This document shows positions 2,961-37,370 of a stretch of DNA of 39,032 bases, piece by piece. The DNA lies in assembly GCA_044451405.1 (NCBI GenBank), contig JBIOKB010000003.1, positions 1 to 39,032 on the forward strand, in the 5' to 3' direction. The stretch comes from Candidatus Babeliales bacterium. Lineage in GTDB: Bacteria > Babelota > Babeliae > Babelales > Vermiphilaceae. Below the pieces are notes generated by a model. That model had not been told where the DNA came from. It searched no databases and saw only the letters and a program-made list of their open reading frames with translations. The position numbers and the translations under genes were made by a program. Within the stretch, counting starts at the first letter, position 1; every line of letters starts with the position of its first letter.

Positions 2961-3671
2961 ATAGATGCAAAAATTTCATTTTACGGGACATACGTCCAGC
3001 TCAATGAACAGGTAACATTACAAAATCAAGATCCAGTTTTGAATGAATGCGCAGCACGTCTAGGAGTGTCTTTACGACAAACCGAAGATCAGCTAACTCG
3101 CGATATGCTCGCAGCCACCGCTTCTTTCATCAACTGTGTTGCTGGATTTAACGGAGATAATCCTACTGAAATTACACGCGGAGATATTAATAACGTAGTG
3201 CGTACATTATTGAACAATAATGCCTACACAATTATGGATAATATCGAGGGTGAAGATAAGTTCGGTACAGCTCCGGTTCGTGATGCTTATTTTGCATTAG
3301 CATCAACCAACTTAACGGCGAATCTTGATAACGTAGCTGGATTCATACACAAAAACCAATATCCCGCTCCCAATGAGGCTTTACGAAGCGAATGGGGCAG
3401 CGCAGGAAATTTGCGATTCTTAGTTTCATCGATTGGATCGCAGACTTCGCAAGCATCATCTCTCGGAGCAACGGTCTACAATATCTTCTGTGTTGGTATG
3501 GAAGCTTATGCATGTATTGAACAAGATGGATACAGCGCAAGCTTTATTTATCGTCCACCAATATATGACGGTCCATTAGCTCTTAATGCTTCAGTTGGAT
3601 ATAAATTCGCCGAAGTGCCAAGAATAACCAATGATCAATGGGTAATTAATTTACGCGCAACATTGGCTTAA
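2961..3671 (+). CDS. Major capsid protein (N4-gp56-like), exon 2
   Basis: YGTYVQLNEQV…DPVL…EWGSAGNLRF…GPLALNASVGYKF resembles N4-gp56-type capsid core. No independent RBS at 2958. Confidence 0.85.
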   Translation: MDAKISFYGTYVQLNEQVTLQNQDPVLNECAARLGVSLRQTEDQLTRDMLAATASFINCVAGFNGDNPTEITRGDINNVVRTLLNNNAYTIMDNIEGEDKFGTAPVRDAYFALASTNLTANLDNVAGFIHKNQYPAPNEALRSEWGSAGNLRFLVSSIGSQTSQASSLGATVYNIFCVGMEAYACIEQDGYSASFIYRPPIYDGPLALNASVGYKFAEVPRITNDQWVINLRATLA

Positions 3672-3695: not shown

Positions 3696-4925
3696 ATGGA
3701 CGGAACTATATTAGGACAAGGTACGTTTACCGCGTCTTCTTTCGGACTAGCAAACCCGAACCCGGGAAATGCTGAACAATCCAATGCCGTACAAACCATT
3801 ATTCAGATTCCATCTGGTGCTGATTGGTTGCGGGTATTTAACTACACCCAATTTGGTGTGGCTGGTTGGGCTGGTGCAGCATATTTTAATGGAACTGCAA
3901 ATGCTGATGTTGGTGTAGAATTTTGGTGGCAACGTGGTATGGCTGCTGGAACTGGTATCGTTAAATATAAAGCTGCTGCAACAGCAGTCTTATCTGGCGA
4001 TACATTAGCATCTGGTGGTTTCACCCTTTACGATCCATCAGGAACTTCAACAGGTGCTCAGCCATTATTGAGTGCTCCGGTAGCAACAACTGCTTCTACA
4101 AACGTAACGCGTCCTATAGTAAGCACCGGTAATACTGCTGGTGTATCAGTAGGTACTGTTGTACGTCTATATGGCACAGCTCAAACAGATGTGAATGGTG
4201 TTGATTTTGTAGTTGGTGCCGTGACTGCTAATACAAGCTTCACGCTCTTAACTGCTTCTAATGCTTTAGCAACTGCTCCTGGCGCAATTGGTGGTGCTGG
4301 ATTCTATAGCATTGTCTATAACGGAAATAGCCAGCTCTTTTATCCACGTCGTCGTACGATCGTGAATATATCACAAGCTGCTAATGCTCAAGTTGGTACT
4401 TCAGTTGCTCATGGATTAACAGTAGGACAAGAAGTTCGCTTCAACATCCCATCTGTTTCTGGCATGACACAATTGAATGCAGATCCATTGAACAACTACT
4501 TCCCAAGTAACTCATTAGTGCCCGCAATTGTTATGAGTGTTGTGGATGACTATAACTTCACGATCAACATCAATACAACGGCATATACTGCATTTACCTA
4601 TCCAACCATTGCACAACAACCAAGTTCATTCCCTATCGTCGTGCCAATTGGTGAAGATACTGCAACATCATTGTCTTCAGCTTCTGCTCAAGTGCCAATG
4701 ATTGGTGGTCAACAAATCTTTAACACAAACAGCCAAATACTCGCTGATTCAACTGTTAACACTGGTTACTTAGGAATGATCTTAGGTATTGGTGGCCTTG
4801 GTATTGAAGCAGCTGCCGTGCCATTAATTGGGCCTGCTGGGTCTATTGCATGGTCTGCTGGAAATGCGCCAACAGGTGACATCTTGTATTGGGTTGCTGG
4901 TAAATCAACATTTGGCGGTCTTTAG
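3696..4925 (+). CDS. Virion structural/decoration protein with FCCH-like beta repeats
   Basis: Gly/Ala/Thr-rich, IVNISQAANAQV.TSVAHGL.VGQEV motif, directly after capsid gene, AGGAG RBS. Confidence 0.6.
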   Translation: MDGTILGQGTFTASSFGLANPNPGNAEQSNAVQTIIQIPSGADWLRVFNYTQFGVAGWAGAAYFNGTANADVGVEFWWQRGMAAGTGIVKYKAAATAVLSGDTLASGGFTLYDPSGTSTGAQPLLSAPVATTASTNVTRPIVSTGNTAGVSVGTVVRLYGTAQTDVNGVDFVVGAVTANTSFTLLTASNALATAPGAIGGAGFYSIVYNGNSQLFYPRRRTIVNISQAANAQVGTSVAHGLTVGQEVRFNIPSVSGMTQLNADPLNNYFPSNSLVPAIVMSVVDDYNFTININTTAYTAFTYPTIAQQPSSFPIVVPIGEDTATSLSSASAQVPMIGGQQIFNTNSQILADSTVNTGYLGMILGIGGLGIEAAAVPLIGPAGSIAWSAGNAPTGDILYWVAGKSTFGGL

Positions 4926-4934
4926 TAATTAAAT

Positions 4935-4952
4935 AGGGGGCTTCGGCCCCCT
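4935..4952 (+). terminator. GC hairpin with C(UUCG)G tetraloop; terminator or mRNA stabiliser after head genes
   Basis: AGGGGGC-TTCG-GCCCCCT. Confidence 0.65.
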
Positions 4953-4966
4953 TCTATAGGAGAGCT

Positions 4967-5407
4967 ATGGAAACAGAATTAAAACCACTTGATCTTACAC
5001 ACAATGGGAAAAGAGAAGATACCCAAGAACCAACTAAGAAATCTAAGAAGTTGAATTTAAAACAACTTCGGGAAAAGCACGCTAAACCAGTGCGTGGGAT
5101 ATTCCGTTACCACGAATGTCCAGGTGGCCTCATGAAATTTTCTTTCATGGAATTTAAAGAAGATGGCGTGAAAGATTATGCATTACAAGATGGCGAAGTG
5201 TATACCATACCACTTGGTGTTGCTCTTCATCTGAATAAGAACGTTGCGTACCCAGAGTATGACTACTTCAAGACCGAAGACAAGATGAAGAATACGTTTC
5301 AAGTCGCGCGTAAAGTGCGTCGTGTGAGTTTTCAGTCTTTGGAATTCATTGATGAAGAAGAGTTTAATTCACCAGATCGCATCTTGCAGGTTACTTCCGC
5401 ATTCTAG
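4967..5407 (+). CDS. Hypothetical phage protein (head-tail region)
   Basis: 146-aa ORF with AGGAG RBS, in operon. Confidence 0.7.
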   Translation: METELKPLDLTHNGKREDTQEPTKKSKKLNLKQLREKHAKPVRGIFRYHECPGGLMKFSFMEFKEDGVKDYALQDGEVYTIPLGVALHLNKNVAYPEYDYFKTEDKMKNTFQVARKVRRVSFQSLEFIDEEEFNSPDRILQVTSAF

Positions 5408-5427
5408 CTCAAAAAAGGAGAGTAGAG

Positions 5428-5796
5428 ATGTCTACCTGTTACGCGCAACCAAATCCTATATTTCAACCGGCAATGCGCATCATTACTGCTATTACTAATG
5501 GCAATCCTGCTACGGTAACAACAAGTTTCGCGCATCAGTATATAAGTGGAACATTGGTTCGCTTAGATATCCCACCCGCAGATGGTATGCCAGAGGCAGA
5601 TCAATTTGTAGGTCCTATTACCGTAACAGGAACCACTACCTTTACTCTCCCGTTAGATACTACCACCTTCACACCTTTTGCAATTCCTGTATCGCCACTT
5701 TCTCAAATAAATACCTGCGCGCAAGTAGTCCCTATAGGTGAGATAACGCCGATTTTAGATGCGGCAGTTCAAAACGTTTTACCGTTTAAAGCATAG
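5428..5796 (+). CDS. Small structural protein with FCCH-like domain
   Basis: ITAITNGNPATVTTSFAH…G..VRL motif, similar to the repeat in 3696..4925. Confidence 0.6.
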   Translation: MSTCYAQPNPIFQPAMRIITAITNGNPATVTTSFAHQYISGTLVRLDIPPADGMPEADQFVGPITVTGTTTFTLPLDTTTFTPFAIPVSPLSQINTCAQVVPIGEITPILDAAVQNVLPFKA

Positions 5797-5804
5797 GAAA
5801 TACG

Positions 5805-6809
5805 ATGGCAGATACATTACAAGGAATACAAACAAAAGTGCGACGCTTAACGCGTAGCATGTCAGAATCAGTGTTATCAACCGTAGATTTAAATGACTAT
5901 ATCAATACATTCGTTTTGTATGATATGCCTGAGCATCTCCGCTTATTTGATTTAAGAACGCAATTCACGTTCTACTGTAATCCCTATCAGGATGTATACG
6001 TGACTGACACTACACTCAACGTAAACGATCCGCTCTACAACTTTAAAAATTTATATATATCCGTTCATCCTCCGCTCTATATAGCCGGTTTCGAAGCAAT
6101 GTATACGCAATCACGTGAGCAACTATTTGGCGTCTATCCTGGCATTAATTTTATTCAATCAATTGGCGTTGCGGGCAATGGTATTACGCAGACCTTTACA
6201 GGAGTTGTGCCTAATTCCCCATTCCTACAAAATCAGGTGCTCTTTTCATCAATAGATACTATGAACAACGGCCTTTCATTAATTGACGTTCCTACTTCAA
6301 ATAGCGCAGGCAACCTTGTAGTACCCGGAACTGCTACCGTCCAAGGAACGGTGAATTATGTAACCGGAGCATTCACCCTCACATTCCCGACTGCTCCAGG
6401 ATCTGGTCAGCCAATCAATAGCCAAACAGTGCCTTATGTTCCACAGATTCCATTGGCTATGCTCTACTATGATGACAAATTCACCCTCCGTCCGGTTCCT
6501 GATCAGCCATATAGAATTAATTTTGAAGTATTTAAACGACCAACTCAGCTCATAGCATCAAATCAGGTTCCTGAATTGGAACAATGGTGGCAATACATAG
6601 CCTATGGTGCAGCTAAAAAAGTATTAGAAGATCGTATGGATCTTGATAGCGTCGCACTCATATTACCTGAGTTTTTAAAGCAACAAAATTTAGTGCTCCG
6701 CAGAACACTTATTCAATATGCAAATCAACGTGTGGCAACTATATACACCGAGCAGACTTCTGTTGGATATAACAACTGGGGTATAGGCGGTGCTGGTGGT
6801 AATTTATAA
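5805..6809 (+). CDS. Putative head-tail adaptor (tail tubular A-like)
   Basis: L..I.TKVRRLT…L.DYIN N-terminus and L.PVPDQ.Y…P.L.QWWQYIAYGAA C-terminus fit podovirus adaptors; position. Confidence 0.55.
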   Translation: MADTLQGIQTKVRRLTRSMSESVLSTVDLNDYINTFVLYDMPEHLRLFDLRTQFTFYCNPYQDVYVTDTTLNVNDPLYNFKNLYISVHPPLYIAGFEAMYTQSREQLFGVYPGINFIQSIGVAGNGITQTFTGVVPNSPFLQNQVLFSSIDTMNNGLSLIDVPTSNSAGNLVVPGTATVQGTVNYVTGAFTLTFPTAPGSGQPINSQTVPYVPQIPLAMLYYDDKFTLRPVPDQPYRINFEVFKRPTQLIASNQVPELEQWWQYIAYGAAKKVLEDRMDLDSVALILPEFLKQQNLVLRRTLIQYANQRVATIYTEQTSVGYNNWGIGGAGGNL

Positions 6810-7383: not shown

Positions 7384-9636
7384 ATGGCATACGATCGTTT
7401 TATTATCGCTCCATTTGATACGGGTCTTCAGACTGATGTTCGACCTTGGTTAGTGCCAGACGACGCATTCGTTTCATTAAAAAATGCCTATGTATTTCGT
7501 GGACGTGTGCGTAAACGATTTGGATCTTTGTATACCGGTAATGGCGCGCAGAATGTCTATACAGCACAGCTCTTTTCTCGCTTAGCAGTGCTCTTAGGTA
7601 CTACGAGTGGCGCAGGTGTTTTAGCAGGTAACGTTCCAGGAAATGTATTTGGTATAGGACAAGCATTCTCAGTTGGCACTGAAATGTTCACGGTCTATCA
7701 AACAGGAAATCCTGCCAATATGCTCACAACGGGCGCATCTACGGTATATACCTATGATACAACAACGGGTGCCTATGTAATTCATGGTGCAGCGCATAAT
7801 ACACCAGTATATTTCTATCCTGCAACTCCTGTTATGGGACTTACTCAATATGAAACGGGTGCTATAAACGCACATCCTGCCTATGCATTTGATACGCAAT
7901 TTGCCTATGTATATACAGGAAGTTTCTGGGAACAATCTCAAGGAGCAGCTACTCCAACATGGCAAGGCAGCAATTCAAATTTCTTCTGGGTAGCTAATTG
8001 GCGTGGTATATCAACAGCAATAACCAATATGTTTGTTACCAACTTTAATGCTACTGTTCCTGTACCAGCAGGAACAGATGATCCTGTGTATACCTTTGAT
8101 GGTACTACTTGGAGTAATTTTTCTGCTGTAATGATCTTTAATACGGCAGGCGATTTTGTTCAAACAGCACTCATGATCGTTCCCTTTAAAGATCGTTTAG
8201 TACTGCTTAACACTATTGAACAGAAAGCAGATAATTCAGCTAATACCCAATATAAAAATAGAGCACGCTTTTGCCACAATGGTTCTCCCTTTGCTACTAA
8301 TGCATGGCTTGAACCTAATACTTCATTTGGTGGTGCCAATGCTGATGGTGCTGGCTGGCTTGACGCTGTAACAGAAGAAGCGATTACCAGCTGTGAGTTC
8401 ATTAAGGATAGATTAATCGTTTATTTTGAACGATCTACGTGGGAATTAGCCTATACCGGAAACCAAGTCTTACCGTTTGTATGGCAGAAGATAAATACAG
8501 AACTTGGAAGTGAAGCAACTTTCAGTTCCATTCCTTTTGATAAAGTTATTTTAACTATGGGAACGACTGGCGTGCATGCTTGTAATGGCAGCAACGTAGA
8601 AAGAATCGACAATAAAATTCCTGACCAAGTATTTGATATTAATGATATTAATATGGGAGTTCAGCGTGTTGCTGGTATTCGTGATTATTTTACTGAATTA
8701 GTTTATTGGACCTTCCCATCGAATCAAGATACAACCGTCTTTCCAAACCAAATCCTGGTCTATAACTATAAAACGGGTTCATGGGCGCTCAACGATGACG
8801 TCATTACTGCCTGGGGCTATTTTGATCAGCAACAAACAGATACATGGGTAGATTCTGTATTTACCTGGGAAAATGCTGATATGACCTGGCAGAGTTCAAA
8901 CATTGAAGCGCAAGTACGTCAGATTATTGCCGGTAATCAAGAAGGTTACATATTTATAATATCGCCTGATTATGCTGACAACGCACCGGTTATGCAGATC
9001 AATAACATGACGGTGAGTGGTGCCTATGTAAATCTCTCTATAACAAATCATACACTGAGTGCTAACGACTTTATTACTATACAGTTTCCACAAGGCATAA
9101 CCTACGTTCCGCCTGCTATTCCTAATATTGTAATAACCAAAATTAATAAAGTTATTGATGCCAATACAGTTAAAGTAGGGCCATTAAATTTTACGGGAAT
9201 CTATACAGGCGGCGGCACCGTAAGCCGCGTATCCAACATCAATATTCTATCTAAGCAATGGAATCCCTATGTTGATCAAGGACGCAACGTCTACATCGCC
9301 AAGATAGATTTTGGTGTATTGAATACGGGTGGGCAAGTAACCGTTGATTATTACACTTCATCATCTAATTTATCTGAAGTAACTGAAGGGACCAATACAG
9401 GAGCAATCTTAGGAACATCAGTTCTGGAAACTGGACCATACACGCTTGTTCCTGTTCCTCTAGAATTCTATCAACAACGTCTATGGCATCCAATTTACTT
9501 CCAATCTGATGGAGAGTTTATTCAGATAAATCTGTATTGGAGCGATGCACAGATGCTTAATGGCGAATGCTTCTTTGATTTCCAATTAGAAGGACTTGTG
9601 CTTCATTCAATCCCTGTTTCTCAAAGGTTGCAATAA
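7384..9636 (+). CDS. Putative tail nozzle / DNA stabilisation protein (tubular B or P22 gp10-like)
   Basis: 750 aa, beta-rich, N-terminal L.NAYVFRGRVRKRFG motif, located between adaptor and ejection genes. Confidence 0.6.
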   Translation: MAYDRFIIAPFDTGLQTDVRPWLVPDDAFVSLKNAYVFRGRVRKRFGSLYTGNGAQNVYTAQLFSRLAVLLGTTSGAGVLAGNVPGNVFGIGQAFSVGTEMFTVYQTGNPANMLTTGASTVYTYDTTTGAYVIHGAAHNTPVYFYPATPVMGLTQYETGAINAHPAYAFDTQFAYVYTGSFWEQSQGAATPTWQGSNSNFFWVANWRGISTAITNMFVTNFNATVPVPAGTDDPVYTFDGTTWSNFSAVMIFNTAGDFVQTALMIVPFKDRLVLLNTIEQKADNSANTQYKNRARFCHNGSPFATNAWLEPNTSFGGANADGAGWLDAVTEEAITSCEFIKDRLIVYFERSTWELAYTGNQVLPFVWQKINTELGSEATFSSIPFDKVILTMGTTGVHACNGSNVERIDNKIPDQVFDINDINMGVQRVAGIRDYFTELVYWTFPSNQDTTVFPNQILVYNYKTGSWALNDDVITAWGYFDQQQTDTWVDSVFTWENADMTWQSSNIEAQVRQIIAGNQEGYIFIISPDYADNAPVMQINNMTVSGAYVNLSITNHTLSANDFITIQFPQGITYVPPAIPNIVITKINKVIDANTVKVGPLNFTGIYTGGGTVSRVSNINILSKQWNPYVDQGRNVYIAKIDFGVLNTGGQVTVDYYTSSSNLSEVTEGTNTGAILGTSVLETGPYTLVPVPLEFYQQRLWHPIYFQSDGEFIQINLYWSDAQMLNGECFFDFQLEGLVLHSIPVSQRLQ

Positions 9637-10181
9637 TGGCAGAGTTTGTATCATCTACAGTTGGATCATTCATACCAACGACGAATATTTGGGACGTGTC
9701 CGAACTGATGGAAGTTGATGTTAATAGTCCACAATTTAAGGAACTTCTTATTCGGTTGTATCAGAACATTAACAATATGGCATTGGTGCTTAATGTAAAA
9801 GACACAGGTATCTACAACAATAGTCAATTTATTAATGGGCAGACGTTTTTTCCTAATCCAACCTTGACTTCAGCATCGACCACTTTTCCTGCAATGCGAC
9901 AAGCCTATAGGTTGGCTGTTATTTTTGGTGCTTTGCCCAATACAGGAGCAAAATCAGTTGCTCATGGAATAACAATTACCAGTTCAACAACATTTACTCG
10001 TATATATGGTGAAGCAAGCGATACAACAGGAAATAATTATATCCCACTGCCGTATGCGAGTCCTACATTGGTGAACAATATACAGTTGGACGTATCAGCA
10101 ACTAATGTGACTGTCACAACAGGATCAAACAGAACGAATTTTAATGAATGCAAAATAATTTTAGAGTGGTTATCTAGTTAA
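9636..10181 (+). CDS. Virion structural protein
   Basis: Translationally coupled (TAATG); beta-rich C-terminus with SVAHGI motif. Confidence 0.6.
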   Translation: MAEFVSSTVGSFIPTTNIWDVSELMEVDVNSPQFKELLIRLYQNINNMALVLNVKDTGIYNNSQFINGQTFFPNPTLTSASTTFPAMRQAYRLAVIFGALPNTGAKSVAHGITITSSTTFTRIYGEASDTTGNNYIPLPYASPTLVNNIQLDVSATNVTVTTGSNRTNFNECKIILEWLSS

Positions 10182-10884: not shown

Positions 10885-12225
10885 ATGCCTCAAATAATCA
10901 ATAACGTTGGCCGTGCTGCAATGTTTGGCCAACAATTTGGACAAGGACTAGGTGAAGGTCTATCTGCGCTTGCAGAATATAAATTACAGCAAGTACAGCA
11001 ACGAAATAATGTTAATCGTCTTGCTGATGTATATAAATCTCTTGGTGCTGATGAGAATACTGCACGAGGATTAGCAGCATTACCGCAAGAAATACAAAAA
11101 TCTTATTTAGAACGTGGCGGTGCTGCAACATGGGGTCAAGGAGGACAACAAGTAGCACAATCAGCACAGCAATCGGGTGTCTATGCACCATCAGCCTTAG
11201 AGCAACCACAACAACAGCAATTTGCACCTCCGTCAGAAACACAAGCAATACGACAACGTTTATCTGCGTTGAACCCTAATCAACCTGAGCAAGAACAAGA
11301 AGCATTGCTCAACAAGATTCGTTCACCAGAGCAACGACGACAAGCATTCCGTGAACAAGGGATTGGATTACCAGAACAACAACCATCTGCTGCGCAATTC
11401 GGACGCGGTATTCAACAAGCGCCACCACAACAAGCCCCTCAAGCAGCCCCAGGGGGCGCCCCAGCGGCTCCACAAAAAGGTAGTATCGGTGAAGTTCTTG
11501 CTCGTCCGTCCTTCCATGAACAGCAATTGAATCGTCGTCATGAAGAAGCGATGGGGCAAAAAGAACGGCACTTTCAAGCAAAAGAACAAAAAGAACTCCG
11601 CAAGGAAAGCGAAGGATTCAGAAAAGAAGTGCTTGATATTCATCATGCTGATATTGCTGATAGAGCTCGGTTGAAGAAGATTCTTTCTATCGATAAAAAG
11701 AATAACGTTATCAATCCTCAGTTATATGCAACACTTAAAGAACATGGATTTGCTACTGGAAGTGTATTAAATGCTGATACCCAAGAACTTGCAAAACTTT
11801 CAACTGACATGTTCACTAATTTTAAGAAGATGTTTCCACGTGGTACTAACATTGATGCGCAGATCTTTGAACAACGTATTCCTTCTCTAATGAATAGTCG
11901 TGAAGGCCGTGAACGTGTTATTGGAAATATGCTCAAACTTACTGATCTTAACGAGAAAATCTATGATGAGATGCAAAACGTCATCAAGGATAATGGCGGC
12001 AATGTACCTCCTCTCTTTCAGGAAGAAGTATATAAGCGCGTAGATCCGTATGTGAAAGATTGGGAACAAGACTTTGTTAATATGTCTCAAGAAAATGCTC
12101 CTCAAGTAGGACAAGGGTTTGATAAGTTGCCTCCTGCGAATTCATTGCCTAAAAACACCGAACTATTTAATGATGTGACTGGTAAATATTTTGTTACCAA
12201 TGGTAAAAATTGGAGGGTCGTATAA
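10885..12225 (+). CDS. Putative DNA ejection protein
   Basis: FGQQFGQGLGEGL N-terminus, Gln-rich helical body; AAGGAG RBS. Confidence 0.55.
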   Translation: MPQIINNVGRAAMFGQQFGQGLGEGLSALAEYKLQQVQQRNNVNRLADVYKSLGADENTARGLAALPQEIQKSYLERGGAATWGQGGQQVAQSAQQSGVYAPSALEQPQQQQFAPPSETQAIRQRLSALNPNQPEQEQEALLNKIRSPEQRRQAFREQGIGLPEQQPSAAQFGRGIQQAPPQQAPQAAPGGAPAAPQKGSIGEVLARPSFHEQQLNRRHEEAMGQKERHFQAKEQKELRKESEGFRKEVLDIHHADIADRARLKKILSIDKKNNVINPQLYATLKEHGFATGSVLNADTQELAKLSTDMFTNFKKMFPRGTNIDAQIFEQRIPSLMNSREGRERVIGNMLKLTDLNEKIYDEMQNVIKDNGGNVPPLFQEEVYKRVDPYVKDWEQDFVNMSQENAPQVGQGFDKLPPANSLPKNTELFNDVTGKYFVTNGKNWRVV

Positions 12226-31277: not shown

Positions 31278-32648
31278 GTGAAAAAAATGAGACCACATGT
31301 AGAGACCCAGATAAAACTGGATCGATTTAAGCCGCGTTTTTATCAGAATGCGTTATTTGATGCTATAGAGAACAAGGGATACAAGCGCGCCATGCTTATC
31401 TGGCCCCGGAGAGCCGGGAAAGATATGGCCGCCTTTCAATTATGTATCCGCGCATGTCTTAAAAAAGTCCAAGTAATCTACTACATATTCCCGACCTATT
31501 CCCAAGCCAAGAAAGTTATTTGGGATAGTATAACTAATACCGGAATGCGTGTTCTTGAATACATTCCTGAAGAGCTTATCAAATCCAAGAACTCTCAGGA
31601 CATGACTATCCGTTTCATAAACGGCAGTCTTCTCCAACTTGTAGGATCTGATAACTATGACTCCTTGATGGGAACTAACCCTGGTGGTTGTGTCTTTTCA
31701 GAGTATGCACTTCAAGATCCTCGAGCTTACCAATTCCTCCGTCCGATCCTTTTAGCCAATGACGGATTTGCTATCTTCCTCAGTACACCACGTGGTAAGA
31801 ACCACCTATATGAGCTCTATGAAATTGCACGCAATCATCCTGAATGGTTCTGCCAAAAGCTTACGGTAGAAGATACATTGCATGTCTCATTGCAGGAAAT
31901 TGAAAAAGATAGGCGTGAAGGCGTGATGAGTGACGATATGATATTGCAGGAGTGGTACACATCGTTTGATATGGGTGTAGAGGGTTCATACTACAGCAAG
32001 TATATTGACAAAATGAAATTAAATAACCAAATTGGCCAAGTGCCGTATGAGCCTGCATTTAGAGTATCAACATCGTGGGATTTAGGATTCCGTGATTCGA
32101 CGTGCATCATTTTCTTTCAAGTGGTTGGCCAGACTATTCGTATCATCGATTGTTATCAGCGCAATAAAGAAGGTCTTGAACATTACATTGATGTGATCAA
32201 CTCCAAGAAATATAACTATCATAAGCATATTGCTCCCCATGACATCAGAGTGCATGAATTTAGCTCAGGATTTACCCGATGGGAGAAAGCTAGGCAACTT
32301 GGCGTAACGTTTACTGACGCACCTAATTTATTGATTCCTGATGGTATTGAAGCAGTACGATCAACATTGTCCAAAGTCTGGATTAATGAAGCGACATGTA
32401 TGCCACTCATTAAAGCATTAGAAGGCTATCGCCAGGAATATGATTCCAAGCGTAATGTGTATAAGCAGCAACCATTGCATGATGTTAATTCTCACTTTGC
32501 TGATGCTATGCGGTATCTATGCGTATCATTACCAAAAATAAAGGATGGATTGTCTGCTGAAGAACTTGACAGACGCTATCAAGAAACGGTATACGGTACT
32601 AGTGGGCAGTTGCCAAAATTCTTCCGCGATGATGGACCAAAATATTAG
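31278..32648 (+). CDS. terL: Terminase large subunit
   Basis: Q-motif PRFYQ, Walker A WPRRAGKD, Walker B CVFSEYA, STPRGKNH, nuclease WDLGFRDST and SHFADAMRY. Confidence 0.96.
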   Translation: MKKMRPHVETQIKLDRFKPRFYQNALFDAIENKGYKRAMLIWPRRAGKDMAAFQLCIRACLKKVQVIYYIFPTYSQAKKVIWDSITNTGMRVLEYIPEELIKSKNSQDMTIRFINGSLLQLVGSDNYDSLMGTNPGGCVFSEYALQDPRAYQFLRPILLANDGFAIFLSTPRGKNHLYELYEIARNHPEWFCQKLTVEDTLHVSLQEIEKDRREGVMSDDMILQEWYTSFDMGVEGSYYSKYIDKMKLNNQIGQVPYEPAFRVSTSWDLGFRDSTCIIFFQVVGQTIRIIDCYQRNKEGLEHYIDVINSKKYNYHKHIAPHDIRVHEFSSGFTRWEKARQLGVTFTDAPNLLIPDGIEAVRSTLSKVWINEATCMPLIKALEGYRQEYDSKRNVYKQQPLHDVNSHFADAMRYLCVSLPKIKDGLSAEELDRRYQETVYGTSGQLPKFFRDDGPKY

Positions 32649-33528: not shown

Positions 33529-33852
33529 ATGCATCCAATAGAAGAGCTATTTAAAGATATGGACAAATTAAAAGATCTGCTTTACTTTGTGGTATCTTTA
33601 CCAGAAAGAGATCTGCAAGATAAATTCACAAAGCGATTTGATGAGCAATGTATGGATTATATACTTCAGCTCGCATTAGAAGGTAACTATGAGCATGCGA
33701 ATAAAGTAGTATATTTGATGCAAAAGGTCTTTGAAAAGGTACCCGAAATTCTTGAACAGGTAACGAAAGAATACAATGAAGATAATAGAAGCGCTGAAGA
33801 AGATAAAAGAACTAAAGCGAAAAAGCGACGAACTAAAAGTAAAAGTACGTGA
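33529..33852 (+). CDS. Hypothetical helical protein
   Basis: Follows previous stop; 3' end overlaps next gene by 77 nt. Confidence 0.55.
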   Translation: MHPIEELFKDMDKLKDLLYFVVSLPERDLQDKFTKRFDEQCMDYILQLALEGNYEHANKVVYLMQKVFEKVPEILEQVTKEYNEDNRSAEEDKRTKAKKRRTKSKST

Positions 33853-34294
33853 ACATTGTGCTGGATTAGATTGCGATACCCCAACCTATGCAGATCAAAG
33901 AGGTCAAATTAAAGAATGGTTACAATCTAACCACGATATCGTTAAAGAAATTGGACATCTGCGTACTTCCATACAACGCACCAATCTCGATACAAAAGTT
34001 ACCATTGAATTGGGTGGAAAGTTTGTTACTAAGAGTATTTCTGAATGGATTGACCGTCGTCGCGAGCTTGCGAAGATGGAAGAAACAATTTGGTTGCAAC
34101 TTTATGATAAAGGACTAAAAGAAACCTACGAACATAAACTTACTCCACAAGCTCCCACCACAACAATTAAAAGAGTATTATACTTCGATCCTAAAGAACG
34201 AGATCAGAAAATAGAATTATATCGCTCAGAACCTGCGTTAATTGATTCTACGCTTGAAATTACTAATGCAGTAACTGAACTTAAAGAAGTTTAG
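33776..34294 (+). CDS. DIP1984-like coiled-coil protein
   Basis: MKI.EAL…K.L…L…IQRTN..T.V…SISEWI.RR…DP…ID..L…NA.T.L matches my recollection of DIP1984/DUF6847-type proteins. Confidence 0.65.
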   Translation: MKIIEALKKIKELKRKSDELKVKVREHCAGLDCDTPTYADQRGQIKEWLQSNHDIVKEIGHLRTSIQRTNLDTKVTIELGGKFVTKSISEWIDRRRELAKMEETIWLQLYDKGLKETYEHKLTPQAPTTTIKRVLYFDPKERDQKIELYRSEPALIDSTLEITNAVTELKEV

Positions 34295-34342
34295 ACTACT
34301 TCCATAAACCCGGCGTTCGTCTTACAAGGGCCTACGCTGGGC

Positions 34343-34353
34343 TTCTTTGAAAT
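34343..34353 (+). promoter_or_regulatory. boxA-like antitermination site (copy 1)
   Basis: TTCTTTGAAAT, repeated at 34671; resembles rRNA-leader boxA (GTTCTTTGAAA type). Confidence 0.45.
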
Positions 34354-34503
34354 GAACTTCAATTGGCATGCTTCGAGTATGTCTCCGTCAGCCCAGGCGG
34401 TAAAATTCCTGGGCTGTTAAAAAGATGTTTGTTGTCACTTGTGGCAATGCTATTGTGCAGGGGAATTTATTGATAATTATTTTGTCCCTGCACATAAAAT
34501 TAC

Positions 34504-34577
34504 GCGGATGTTGTCTAGTAGGTAAGACGCCGGTATAAAAAAACCGGACAACGGTGGTTCGATCCCATCCGTCCGCT
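34504..34577 (+). tRNA. tRNA-like gene with Gly-type acceptor and 8-nt anticodon loop (AUAAAAAA)
   Basis: GCGGATG/CGTCCGC, D GTCT/AGAC, AC CCGGT/ACCGG, T GGTGG-TTCGATC-CCATC; no encoded CCA. Confidence 0.8.
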
Positions 34578-34586
34578 TGAAATAAA

Positions 34587-34672
34587 AACCTATTAGTAGC
34601 CCAATTTGCAGCGAAAGCGGCAGCTACTTTTAGTAGTTTGCACACCAGGTGTGCTGCCCTGGCTAATAGGTT
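34587..34672 (+). ncRNA. Degenerate tRNA-like cloverleaf
   Basis: AACCTATTAG/CTAATAGGTT, TA-GCC…GGC, GCTAC/GTAGT, CCAGG/CCTGG; lacks TTCGA. Confidence 0.5.
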
Positions 34673-34681
34673 CTTTGAAAT
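34671..34681 (+). promoter_or_regulatory. boxA-like antitermination site (copy 2)
   Basis: GTTCTTTGAAAT directly before the structured RNA. Confidence 0.45.
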
Positions 34682-34746
34682 TATCAGACTAACGTACAGA
34701 CATAAAAATTGGTAAAACGTAGAAGTTGCTGAACTCAAATCAGTAT

Positions 34747-34817
34747 AATGCTATAGCTCAGAGGTAGAGCGTCAGGCTAATAACCTGAAAACGTAGGTTC
34801 GATTCCTATTAGCGTAA
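34747..34817 (+). tRNA. tRNA-Ile(AAU)-like gene
   Basis: AATGCTA/TAGCGTA (1-72 mismatch), D GCTC/GAGC, AC TCAGG-CTAATAA-CCTGA, T GTAGG-TTCGATT-CCTAT, A73; no CCA. Confidence 0.8.
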
Positions 34818-34855
34818 TTGGCCTGCAAAGCCCGTTTCACGACGTAAACGTGTTA

Positions 34856-34929
34856 TTAAAGTACGTAAGATTCATGGTTTAAGATCGTAAGTTTTAAAAA
34901 GCTTTAAGTATTAAGAATCAAGGATCAAG
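34856..34929 (+). repeat. Degenerate ~7-nt tandem repeat ending in AAG (~10 units)
   Basis: ttaaag tacgtaag attcatg gtttaag atcgtaag ttttaaaaag ctttaag tattaag aatcaag gatcaag. Confidence 0.8.
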
Positions 34930-35066
34930 GATCATCCCTTCCTCTTGTAGGATAGGGAATGACCTATAAAAGTTATTTTGTCTTCGTTTTTAACCCACAC
35001 TTTGTAGGGTCCTATACGGGTAGTCTGTAAAAATATTGGTTAGTGTCGTATGATACTAATAATGTT

Positions 35067-35102
35067 CCCCACAAGTTGACACCATCCTCTTGTGGGGTTT
35101 TT
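35067..35102 (+). terminator. Intrinsic terminator
   Basis: CCCCACAAG/CTTGTGGGG + T5. Confidence 0.75.
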
Positions 35103-35147
35103 GATAGCCTTAAACTCTGTATGCTTTAGCATATATAGTCCTTTTTT

Positions 35148-35179
35148 CCCCAGTGAGAACATTCTCATTGGGGTTTTTT
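35148..35179 (+). terminator. Intrinsic terminator
   Basis: CCCCAGTGAGAA/TTCTCATTGGGG + T6. Confidence 0.8.
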
Positions 35180-35180
35180 A

Positions 35181-35209
35181 TTGAATGCGAAAATTGAGGT
35201 TCATACAAT
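35181..35209 (+). promoter_or_regulatory. Putative late promoter for portal operon
   Basis: TTGAAT-17nt-TACAAT; same 18-mer as 2189-2206. Confidence 0.7.
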
Positions 35210-35312
35210 CGCTTTGTAGTCAGTGAAGCGATGAAGATTCAAGACCTCCTATAAGTTAATAAGTCTCATGCGGCATTCCCTGACTACCCTTATTACTATT
35301 AAGGGAGAATGA

Positions 35313-37370
35313 ATGCTATTTCCTCAACTTGGGCCACAGTACCTCGACGATAAAGATCGCGCTATTCTTGCGCGCATGGAATCTTTTTATGCAGAAAGTA
35401 TCACAATAAACCAATCTTTTTGGGGTGAAGCTGATACTGACACTCGTTTCTATACCGGTGATCAAACACTCTGGAATGATCTGTATGGTAACCTGCCTGC
35501 AAATCGACGTAGGCAATTTAGCTTTAATCGTATTATGCGTGTAGTGAATATGATTCATGGCCATCAGTGTCGGAATCGTAAATCCATAATTGCTACCGGT
35601 GTAGAAAATGCCGATGCAAAGACCGCAGATCAATTTACAAAAATAATTCTGAATATAAATCAGCAAGAAAATGTCCTTGAAACAATATCCACCGCTTTTC
35701 GTGGTGCATTAGTCACTGGCATGAATCTGCTCCAAATATGGGTAGATTATCGACAGGATCCTGTTTCAGGAAACATAAAAGTAGATTACCTACCATATAA
35801 CGCATTCCTCATAGACCCGTTTTTTACCAAGCACGACTTATCTGATTGCAATTCATTGTGGACACGCAAATTCCTCACTAAACGTGAATGCATCGCTTTA
35901 TTGTCTGAACATGTTGAAGAAATAATGGGACTATCTGGCAATGATTCTGGTAACGGTAGGGACGGAAAATTTCAATTTGCTCCCCAGAGCTACAATTACG
36001 GAATGAAAAATCTATTAACGTACGATGAATACTATTATCGCACCTATCGTACGCAGCAAATGCTCGTTGATTCTCAAACGGGTGAAACAATGGAGTGGAA
36101 ATCAAATAATGAAGAAGGATTGAAGCAATTTCTACAAATGTACCCTTCAGTAACGATCATTGAGCAAGAAATTCCAACGGTGAATGTTGCTCTCGTGGTA
36201 CAAGGAAAGGTAATGTACGATGGTCCGAATCCACTTGGTATCGACTCATACCCCTTTGTCCCAGTTTGGGCTTACTACGAACCGCAAAGTCCGTATTTCC
36301 CGTGGCGTATTCAAGGGGTCGTTCGCGGTCTCCGTGACGCCCAATATCTCTATAATCGTCGTAAAGCGATAGAACTCGATATCCTTGAAAGCCAAATTAA
36401 TTCAGGTTTTAAGTTCAAAGAAAATGCGCTCGTTAACCCGCGCGATGTGTGGGAACAACAAGGGCAAGGTCGTGGTGTAGCTATTAAAGAAGAAGCTCAG
36501 ATGACTGATGTGGAACAAATCCTTCCTCCACAAGTTCCTCCGTCCATGATTGAACTATCCAAGATTCTTGCTGAAGAAATTAGCCAAATATCCGGCGTCA
36601 ACGAAGAATTGCTTGGTTCAGCAATGGATGATAAAGCAGGCATACTTTCTATGTTGCGCCAAGGCGCAGGTCTTACAACACTCCAAGGTCTATTTGATAA
36701 CCTCGATAATGCTCAAAAAACATTGGGCAAACTCATGATCGATATTATCCAGACCAATTATACGCCCGGTAAAGTGAAAAAGATTTTAGAGGGTGAAGAG
36801 CCACAACCGCAATTCTATAACAAAGCATTTGGCGTCTATCATGCCGTTGTAGAAGATGGCCTCAATTCATCTACTCAAAAACAAATGCAGTTCGCGCAAA
36901 TGTTGCAGCTGCGTGAAGTTGGCGTTCCAATTACTGATGAGGATCTTCTTGAAGCAGCTACTCTACAAGGCAAGAGCGACATGGTCGAAAATATGCAGGC
37001 ACAGAAACAACAAGCTATGCAGATGCAAATGCAACAAATGCAATTGGATATGCAGGAACAGATGGCGAATATTGATCTGGCTAAAGCACGGGCGACAGCT
37101 GATGAAGGTCTTGGCGTTGAACGTTATTCACGTGTGCAAGAAAATCAAGCGTTAGCGCGTGAACGTGATGCAGCTGCTGAAAAAGATCATGAAATTGGCG
37201 TGCTGAATGTAATAAAAGCACTTAAAGAAATAGACAGCATTGATATAGATCAGATGAACAAATTAATAGCGCTATCGCATCTTTTAAAGCAACACGAAAT
37301 GAATCAGCAAAAGCATGAAAAAGAAATGGCGATACCGAGTCCAGTAAATAATGCCATGGTGGCACAGTAA
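35313..37370 (+). CDS. Portal protein (P22-like)
   Basis: 685 aa; D.RFYTGDQ…FN.I..VVN.I.G, YPFVPVW…GVVR.LRDAQ..YN.R, ISGVN.E.LG, Gln/Met-rich barrel helix; downstream of TerL. Confidence 0.9.
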   Translation: MLFPQLGPQYLDDKDRAILARMESFYAESITINQSFWGEADTDTRFYTGDQTLWNDLYGNLPANRRRQFSFNRIMRVVNMIHGHQCRNRKSIIATGVENADAKTADQFTKIILNINQQENVLETISTAFRGALVTGMNLLQIWVDYRQDPVSGNIKVDYLPYNAFLIDPFFTKHDLSDCNSLWTRKFLTKRECIALLSEHVEEIMGLSGNDSGNGRDGKFQFAPQSYNYGMKNLLTYDEYYYRTYRTQQMLVDSQTGETMEWKSNNEEGLKQFLQMYPSVTIIEQEIPTVNVALVVQGKVMYDGPNPLGIDSYPFVPVWAYYEPQSPYFPWRIQGVVRGLRDAQYLYNRRKAIELDILESQINSGFKFKENALVNPRDVWEQQGQGRGVAIKEEAQMTDVEQILPPQVPPSMIELSKILAEEISQISGVNEELLGSAMDDKAGILSMLRQGAGLTTLQGLFDNLDNAQKTLGKLMIDIIQTNYTPGKVKKILEGEEPQPQFYNKAFGVYHAVVEDGLNSSTQKQMQFAQMLQLREVGVPITDEDLLEAATLQGKSDMVENMQAQKQQAMQMQMQQMQLDMQEQMANIDLAKARATADEGLGVERYSRVQENQALARERDAAAEKDHEIGVLNVIKALKEIDSIDIDQMNKLIALSHLLKQHEMNQQKHEKEMAIPSPVNNAMVAQ

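Follow-up and report, generated by a model that had tools for sequence, protein, structure and literature searches.

The stretch of DNA analyzed here (the window) is a complete contig of 39,032 bp with the gene content of a phage, and it carries a gene for a 172-aa DIP1984-like protein followed downstream by a structured RNA of ∼343 nt (34685 to 35027) that bears a periodic AAG tract and encloses a tRNA. Comparison across related loci indicates that gene and RNA are inherited together as a real, conserved, and apparently undescribed module of uncultivated phages. We propose, as a reading that we consider evenly balanced between right and wrong, a two-part phage module in which the DIP1984-like protein would coat the AAG tract of a dedicated ∼300- to 390-nt RNA, giving a ribonucleoprotein (RNP) with a target in tRNA or translation biology. 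The original prediction for this locus had joined the gene and a helix-closed, periodic-AAG RNA into one protein-noncoding RNA system, and this now has strong comparative-genomic support: the gene lies within 2 kb and on the same strand for 43 of the 44 RNAs that a motif scan retrieved, accompanies all five RNAs found in genome bins, and is absent, like the RNA, from all 80 control loci.

Scanning IMG/VR with the protein yielded 28 loci (L001 to L028; 26 to 63% identity), and inspection of 1.1 kb downstream of the gene revealed the same element in most of them, in the order leader AGAGAUAAAAAYYGG, tRNA or tRNA-like insert, ∼10 NNNN-AAG units, hairpin, and GAGAGAAYGNCCU...AAGUU...CUU...AGGCUUCCUGUUUGGG. 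The recurrence of periodic AAG tracts downstream of homologues, put forward earlier as a check on the pair, was borne out. We define the class by a closing helix (P1), an AUAAAAA leader with a pseudoknot, the AAG tract, a 3′ helix of the form GAAYGNCC...AAGUU...CUU...GGSUUCC, and a DIP1984-like gene next to the RNA. The 3′ domain was the basis of a covariance model (R1), which recognized 23 of the 28 loci at 59 to 99 bits and two more weakly; the window scores 70.7 bits and holds every defining part together with the adjacent gene. Its RNA is composed of a 14-bp P1, an A-rich leader, a 4-bp pseudoknot, a variable slot, the AAG tract, a hairpin (P2), and a 3′ helix (P3′), which lie with the gene as follows.

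33776 to 34294, plus strand: gene for the 172-aa DIP1984-like protein (open reading frame [ORF], NCBIfam profile, homologue alignment, AlphaFold2 [AF2], and Foldseek)
34685 to 34699 (34685-34691 and 34693-34699), plus strand: 5′ strand of P1 and start of the RNA (covariation, replicated in a second alignment)
34700 to 34708, plus strand: single-stranded leader ACAUAAAAA (conserved in relatives)
34709 to 34712, plus strand: 5′ strand of the pseudoknot, UUGG (covariation)
34746 to 34818, plus strand: tRNA-Ile (AAU) inside the variable slot (ARAGORN; Rfam tRNA, 64.8 bits at 34747-34817)
34856 to 34929, plus strand: periodic AAG tract of nine triplets, the last five in exact 7-nt register (triplet positions and relatives)
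34936 to 34957, plus strand: P2 hairpin (CCCUUCC...GGAUAGGG) running into the conserved GGGAAUGACC (read from the sequence)
34955 to 34974, plus strand: conserved GGGAAUGACC, 5′ strand of P3′ (34963-34972), and AAGUU motif (alignments)
34994 to 34997, plus strand: 3′ strand of the pseudoknot, CCCA, in the P3′ loop (three of four positions pair in the window)
35000 to 35011, plus strand: 3′ strand of P3′, CUUUGUAGGGUC (covariation)
35012 to 35027 (35012-35018 and 35021-35027), plus strand: 3′ strand of P1 and end of the RNA (covariation)

The linkage also emerges when the search starts from the RNA. An RNA-only motif scan of IMG/VR returned 47 stretches, 44 of which were confirmed by R1, the other three (L112, L129, and L155) being rejected as chance matches in coding DNA. 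Ten of the 44 contigs were already among the protein-found set and 34 were new. The gene is on the same strand in the fetched locus for 39 of the 44 RNAs, upstream in 35 and directly downstream in 4. For L005, L011, and L012 it had previously been seen upstream on the same contigs, in L134 it lies ∼1 kb upstream with another ORF between, and L111, where the RNA sits at the contig edge, is the single motif-found RNA without the gene in view. A motif scan of 596 Gb of prokaryotic genomes gave 43 stretches, 38 of them not confirmed and five real by R1, all five on metagenome-bin contigs and with the gene. Both gene orders occur, the RNA being usually 3′ of the gene and 5′ of it in six loci (L127, L137, L143, L150, L192, and L193), and any other gene family accompanies the pair in at most 7 of 68 loci. 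The 80 control loci, found via the portal protein (49 to 76% identity), hold neither the gene nor the RNA, which argues that the cassette is an insertion in the window phage, outside the packaging module.

Selection on the RNA fold was assessed in two alignments. The first, A1, holds 23 full-length RNAs, and RNAalifold folded it into P1 (34685-34691 with 35021-35027 and 34693-34699 with 35012-35018) and P3′ (34963-34968 with 35002-35008). Across these 21 pairs, 93.3% of the cells are paired compared to 30 to 51% for slid partners, and the covariation score is 0.813 compared to 0.12 to 0.19, a value reached by none of 500 shuffles; changes on both sides are found in 19 of the 21 pairs (146 cells). 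The second, A6, holds 29 further RNAs from other contigs, found by RNA motif instead of protein. Eight of the 37 listed RNAs were left out, since no leader was found by pattern in L123, L127, L128, L131, L149, L211, and L143 (too little flank) and the leader of L111 lies too near the contig end. De novo folding of A6 gave the same architecture, with P1 recovered and P3′ extended to 13 pairs. The 27 pairs are 94.4% paired (35 to 59% slid), with a covariation score of 0.609 against at most 0.155, 186 double-change cells, and again none of 500 shuffles reaching the score.

The pseudoknot joins the four bases after the A-run of the leader to four bases of the P3′ loop, and the pairs change together (CUGG/CCAG, UUGG/CCAA, CCGG/CCGG, CUGC/GCAG, UUGA/UCAA, CCGC/GCGG, and others). 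Its four pairs are 97.4% paired in A6 (8 to 53% slid), with 31 double-change cells, a covariation score of 0.772 against at most 0.254, and none of 500 shuffles reaching it. Partial misalignment of the loop in A1 makes the count weaker in that set (67% paired against 21 to 48% slid; 0.35 against at most 0.23; 13 of 500 shuffles). A generic "longest helix" permutation test gave 345 of 5,000, a weak test given that CUGG/CCAG is common to many RNAs. Covariation shows a compact RNA core of P1, pseudoknot, and P3′ (a 13- to 14-bp 3′ helix), in an RNA class of ∼300 to 390 nt whose leader, AGA-N-AUAAAAA, feeds into the pseudoknot.

The earlier idea of a helix-closed RNA was right, but the coordinates given for its helices are off the conserved register. 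Two of them (34695-34701 with 35023-35029 and 34822-34830 with 35000-35008) are 42% and 52% paired in A1, compared to 32 to 46% slid, with a covariation score of 0.083 against 0.047 to 0.075 that 46 of 500 shuffles reach. They are misregistered and make use of a second CAGAC in the window. Another proposed helix (34688-34693 with 35039-35044) falls outside the conserved element and outside the alignment. The hairpin noted after the tract is P2, and equivalent hairpins, variable in sequence, are present in relatives (no formal count).

The AAG triplets of the window stand at 34859, 34867, 34881, 34889, 34899, 34906, 34913, 34920, and 34927, with spacings of 8, 14, 8, 10, 7, 7, 7, and 7 nt; they agree with the positions and ∼7-nt period first described, at nine triplets instead of about ten. 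Tandem Repeats Finder reports only 34913-34934 in the window (period 7, 3.1 copies). Since a 75-nt span with nine AAG also occurs in coding DNA near 11543 of the same A-rich contig, number alone proves nothing, and it is the 7- to 8-nt phasing and the conservation that distinguish the tract. Both were followed in 56 distinct RNAs (the window, protein-found loci, and viral motif-found loci), which have a median of 10 AAG (range, 7 to 15) in the 170 nt before P3′. Of the 415 neighbor spacings, 7 nt accounts for 151 and 8 nt for 100; a further 94 measure 14 to 16 nt, where one unit has been lost, and 34 measure 4 nt. Two bases ahead of the triplet, G or U stands in 86% of units, and the base that follows it is G in 48%. 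Across these relatives the triplet stays constant while the spacers drift, as had been proposed from the window. In partition-function folds, the fraction unpaired is 0.57 for AAG bases, 0.38 for spacers, and 0.42 for the rest of the RNA, and 50 of the 56 RNAs show a higher fraction for the AAG bases than for the remainder of the molecule. The most divergent homologues (L027 and L028, 26 to 32% identical) retain the AAG tract downstream, with a 3′ domain that R1 does not recognize, as expected if the tract is the site of the protein; a scan for further members of this subfamily gave already known loci only. A CsrA-like interpretation, based on two CAAGGAU in the window, was dropped because the class as a whole does not conserve GGA.

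The protein half of the pair had been called DIP1984-like, and this is correct. The 172-aa product matches the full NCBIfam profile NF038048 with an E value of 1.7e-8 and 34.8 bits (cutoff, 70) and Pfam DUF6847 with an E value of 1e-3 and 19.6 bits (cutoff, 27). By sequence it is a distant DIP1984 relative that falls under both curators' cutoffs and so outside formal membership. An AF2 model built from 26 homologues (pLDDT 93.3) is a helical bundle with a small sheet, and Foldseek found chains A and C of 3kdq (E values of 4.2e-5 and 6e-5) as its only PDB matches at an E value of ≤1e-3. Chain A matches with probability 1.00 and TM-scores of 0.55/0.61, the next non-3kdq match having an E value of 0.096, so that by Foldseek the window protein has the fold of the solved family member. 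This structure, released in 2009, shows a functionally uncharacterized protein from Corynebacterium diphtheriae. When the PDB was searched by sequence, both the protein and a 26-row profile gave only chance matches to repeat proteins.

The protein is single domain, and its invariant motifs are basic and polar. In the homologues the N terminus MKIIEALK is invariant and the TN, WIxRRR, and LExxN motifs are kept, the phage clade having motifs of its own. The invariant MKIIEALK supports 33776 as the true start; a 107-aa ORF at 33529-33852 overlaps the gene start by 77 nt in another frame. The family is large, with 987 representative clusters at an E value of ≤1e-3 and 147 at ≤1e-30. Some members of the DIP1984 family (DUF6847) are annotated "putative septicolysin," and a look-alike cluster named "putative Septicolysin" in the Atlas carries DUF6847. 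Among the papers listed for septicolysin, most are Acinetobacter baumannii genome or plasmid studies, and our literature search returned no description of a function or RNA partner for the DIP1984, DUF6847, or septicolysin family.

Oligomerization, which had been assumed, was assessed by a prediction with four copies of the protein alone and no RNA chain. It supports a symmetric pair interface and nothing beyond the pair, with an interface score (ipSAE) of 0.74 against 0.01 for the best control, at least 91% contact agreement between runs, and a partner pLDDT of at least 86. The calibration behind this mark, which 20 of 30 solved homo-pairs and 1 of 23 single chains reached, used two copies with their own alignments and applies only roughly to a four-copy run. 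The pass may also draw in part on memory of the multichain 3kdq crystal.

The slot between leader and tract had been overlooked as a tRNA gene. In the window, the slot tRNA (34746-34818) belongs to Rfam RF00005 at 64.8 bits (gathering score, 29), with A-A as its first acceptor pair. In 21 of the 56 RNAs, ARAGORN places a tRNA in the slot, with anticodons for Ile (AAU, UAU, and GAU), Ser, Thr, Pro, Arg, Tyr, Gln, Leu, Asn, and Lys and an opal suppressor-like UCA. Some are proper type II tRNAs (an 86-nt Leu and an 84-nt Ser), and others are without the long arm that their identity needs. In an Rfam scan of 15 loci, the slots of L024 and L120 hold truncated tRNA cores only and most slots give no tRNA match; the slot of L018 is a short stretch only. 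Slot contents thus range from a real tRNA through a tRNA-like remnant to a short hairpin, a variety which argues that the tRNA is an exchangeable passenger in a permissive site, reminiscent of the tRNAs in the GOLLD linker. Between the slot and the AAG tract, seven loci (L021, L111, L124, L130, L154, L156, and L159) have remnants resembling tRNA 5′ halves, with an acceptor strand and a D arm (type UAGCUCAGYGGUAGAGCA), which suggest repeated tRNA insertion and decay at the slot site.

The surroundings of the module are also rich in tRNA genes. In L004, an array of 17 tRNAs (4594-6626) starts right after the DIP1984-like gene, and the AAG-repeat RNA lies inside it, around the second tRNA. L019 has a phage transfer-messenger RNA (tmRNA; 3306-3661, plus strand; Rfam, 116.3 bits) directly upstream of its DIP1984-like gene (4001-4516), with several tRNAs nearby. 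A suppressor-like tRNA with anticodon UUA ("tRNA-Stop") lies at 4862-4937 of L001, just after the RNA, and the slot of L140 (within 9559-9944, minus strand) holds a 73-nt tRNA with anticodon UCA that is called tRNA-SeC. Such suppressor-like tRNAs hint that some carrier phages recode stop codons. Because the RNA encloses a tRNA in a tRNA gene context, its likely biology differs from what the original prediction had considered.

In the window, the ∼1 kb after the gene (34295-35312) holds no credible ORF. It had been described as noncoding, which is right for proteins and wrong for tRNAs, as it contains two tRNA genes. Two terminators had been predicted at its end, and terminator-like hairpins are indeed present. 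Besides the RNA, the stretch has the following features.

34504 to 34577, plus strand: extra tRNA gene upstream of the RNA (ARAGORN "tRNA-???," anticodon aaaa; Rfam tRNA, 47.6 bits)
35067 to 35102, plus strand: terminator-like hairpin CCCCACAAG / CUUGUGGGG followed by UUUUU (read from the sequence)
35148 to 35173, plus strand: second terminator-like hairpin (computed)

The extra tRNA has an 8-nt anticodon loop, AUAAAAAA, and regular acceptor, D, and T arms; it could be a frameshift suppressor-like or a defective tRNA-Phe. Between the two tRNA genes (34588-34673, plus strand), a perfect 10-bp long-range inverted repeat, AACCTATTAG / CTAATAGGTT, surrounds GC-rich hairpins, and a leader-like AUAAAAAC motif stands just before it at 34582. 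Repeat and motif may be the remnant of a second element. Directly 5′ of P1, a conserved TCTTTGA(A/C) motif is present in the window (34671-34679) and in L001 to L007, L012, L015, and L021, and may belong either to a promoter or to the RNA itself.

The module of the window lies between the large terminase gene (31278-32648) and the gene for a P22-type portal (35313-37370). Only L020 shares this terminase-gene-portal order among the 28 protein-found loci, and a terminase or portal match within ∼4 kb is found in few others (L004, L005, L006, L007, L013, and L024). A packaging role like that of phi29 pRNA was dropped because the placement is not kept in relatives. No relatives of the region were found at the DNA or protein level among 50,697 deposited phage genomes, and a pattern scan of prokaryotic genome contigs with the protein motif gave no match. 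The bin that carries the window contig comprises 1.02 Mb in 89 contigs and is an estimated 95.7% complete, pointing to an organism with a very small genome. One of the five genome-bin RNAs, L193, is on a 37-kb contig of a Saccharibacteria bin. Host assignment is uncertain for binned phage contigs such as these two, and an RNA polymerase fragment from the genome of the window gave no match in the three genome bins with which it was compared.

In the two-part module that we propose, the pseudoknotted core would project the variable tRNA slot on one side and the mostly unpaired tract of ∼10 AAG on the other. The protein, predicted to pair with itself, would coat the tract at a ratio of one subunit, or one dimer, to every one or two units, and the resulting RNP would be made during infection. 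The binding model first put forward, with one repeat per subunit in a ring or filament, is a plausible conjecture. The built-in slot and the tRNA and tmRNA neighborhood make tRNA or translation the likely target, for example through the handling of phage tRNAs or as a decoy for a host factor that acts on tRNA.

Several points weigh against this proposal. That the protein binds the AAG tract is something we infer, and the RNA is a predicted transcript. The fold of the protein resembles only 3kdq, a structure without assigned function, and Pfam, PHROGs, NCBIfam, and PADLOC reveal no recognizable RNA-binding domain. The linkage of gene and RNA could stem from cotranscription or regulation instead of a complex, and what binds the tract may be a host protein. 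The slot, tRNA arrays, suppressor-like tRNA, and tmRNA point to tRNA or translation biology by context only.

We also consider, as an extension of the two-part module that is less likely than not, that it may be an unrecognized class of phage RNP, an RNA chassis with a swappable tRNA or tRNA mimic and a protein-coated rail of ∼10 AAG that would manipulate host tRNA or translation or blunt tRNA-cutting defenses, the slot being a cargo site exchanged between phages.

Of the competing explanations, the one that survives best, which we nonetheless consider unlikely, is that the RNA is autonomous in the manner of the phage RNAs GOLLD and ROOL, forming an RNA-only assembly or scaffold, and that the protein is an accessory (a chaperone, a stabilizer, or simply cotranscribed) that does not sit on the AAG tract. 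An ornate pseudoknotted core is typical of self-sufficient structured RNAs, and the protein is without a known RNA-binding fold. GOLLD and ROOL, which are comparable phage RNAs, lie near tRNA islands (PMC5737381; GOLLD/ROOL cryo-electron microscopy [cryo-EM] preprint). According to the preprint, the GOLLD linker sometimes has tRNAs embedded in it, and ROOL, for which a protein partner has yet to be identified, is proposed to form an RNA-only complex, which also weighs against a protein-coated RNA. The same absence of a partner sets ROOL apart from the RNAs described here, which keep the gene adjacent in either order in 43 of 44 and 5 of 5 cases. Conserved single-stranded triplets with free spacers are, moreover, typical of protein sites and not of RNA-RNA contacts.

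A cis-acting role, with the RNA as an untranslated region of the DIP1984-like mRNA serving as autoregulatory operator or stability element, seems to us quite unlikely. It would account for the RNA always sharing the strand of the gene and lying right beside it, and regulation of their own mRNA is common among RNA-binding proteins. However, an RNA of 300 to 390 nt that includes a closing helix, pseudoknot, and tRNA slot far exceeds the needs of known operators, and tRNA genes or several hundred nucleotides separate gene and RNA in the window, L003, L004, L013, and L019, as do ∼1 kb and another ORF in L134. The TCTTTGA motif just 5′ of P1 in many loci, a possible promoter of the RNA's own, argues in the same direction.

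We regard as distinctly improbable a toxin-antitoxin-like or sponge pair, in which the RNA would neutralize a toxic protein or soak up a host RNA-binding factor or defense nuclease. A small protein gene does stand beside a repeat-bearing RNA, the module shifts between genome contexts like a moron, and tRNA-like decoys against tRNA-cleaving defenses are plausible. The type III-like toxin-antitoxin reading, raised earlier, is nevertheless a poor fit: the units are 7 to 8 nt long, degenerate, and set within a large fold, with only the 3.1 7-mer copies seen by Tandem Repeats Finder, there is no nuclease-like or ToxN-like endoribonuclease fold by Foldseek against the PDB, Pfam, PHROGs, NCBIfam, or PADLOC, and the RNA has no Rfam match. 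Finally, that the repeats act as DNA (as iterons, a packaging site, or an origin), with RNA structure incidental, is scarcely credible even with the window element lying between terminase and portal, since L020 alone shares that placement, the repeats are strand specific relative to the gene, and compensatory changes in three helices speak for selection on RNA pairing.

Large structured RNAs with a protein partner of their own are rare in bacteria and phages. Here, covariation for three helices including a pseudoknot and a candidate protein site of ten spaced AAG are already in hand, and with 987 clusters and a high-confidence model, binding, stoichiometry, and structure are open to direct test with cloned parts. 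The DIP1984/DUF6847 fold, solved in 2009, would gain from the RNA a first lead to its function; the window protein shares this fold and matches the family profile over its full length, at scores below both cutoffs. The variable slot may inform how phage tRNAs are acquired and used.

Several known systems share single features with the pair. TRAP and HutP read spaced NAG triplets on single-stranded RNA, TRAP through ∼11 (G/U)AG triplets with 2- to 3-nt spacers and a ring-forming β-sandwich protein and HutP through sites with a 7-nt period; both are β-rich or α/β rings that act as attenuators on leader mRNAs. The likeness lies in conserved purine triplets with free spacers. The window tract, in contrast, has AAG with 4- to 5-nt spacers in a large stand-alone RNA fold, and the protein is a mostly helical bundle predicted to form a 2-fold pair. 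CsrB and RsmZ sponges carry many GGA motifs, mostly in hairpin loops, whereas G follows only 48% of the AAG units and the RNA has no Rfam match. Type III toxin-antitoxin systems (ToxIN) also place a repeat RNA gene beside a small protein gene on mobile elements, but ToxI-type antitoxins consist of 34- to 45-nt near-identical tandem units, and the pair departs from them in unit length and repeat identity as well as in gene order and protein fold, which leaves it outside the type on both the RNA and the protein side. Y RNA and YrlA, in their protein-RNA pair with Ro60, have paired ends that form a closing stem from which a tRNA-like module projects, an arrangement that the AAG-repeat RNA resembles. 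It differs in having no Rfam match, no Ro60/TROVE protein, an AAG tract that is not known from YrlA, and a slot that often holds a full tRNA, with varied anticodons.

The closest parallels are GOLLD and ROOL, which we take to be RF01998 and RF03087, the latter of roughly 600 nt. No GOLLD or ROOL covariance match was found in the whole window, in 34250-35330, or in 15 related loci. The Rfam search suggested earlier, with Rfam 15 over the window at gathering scores, gave the two tRNAs only; at an E value of ≤10 over 34250-35330 nothing else was credible, and PADLOC gave no match. No description of the RNA or of the gene-RNA pair was found in the literature searched, including the portions available of PMC5737381, PMC10690425, and the GOLLD/ROOL cryo-EM, Minerva, and tRNA-mimic preprints. 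As far as Rfam 15 and this literature go, the pair is apparently an undescribed class. A fragment of the AAG-repeat RNA may be among the 8,495 unnamed candidate RNAs from IMG/VR that PMC10690425 places in its supplements. Like GOLLD and ROOL, the AAG-repeat RNA is phage encoded, lies beside tRNA genes, is intricately folded, and has no known function. At ∼300 to 390 nt it is much smaller (many GOLLD RNAs exceed 800 nt, according to the cryo-EM preprint), and it is set apart further by its periodic AAG tract and by the protein gene that almost always accompanies it. It would thus add a third, protein-linked type to the question of why phages put ornate RNAs among their tRNA genes.

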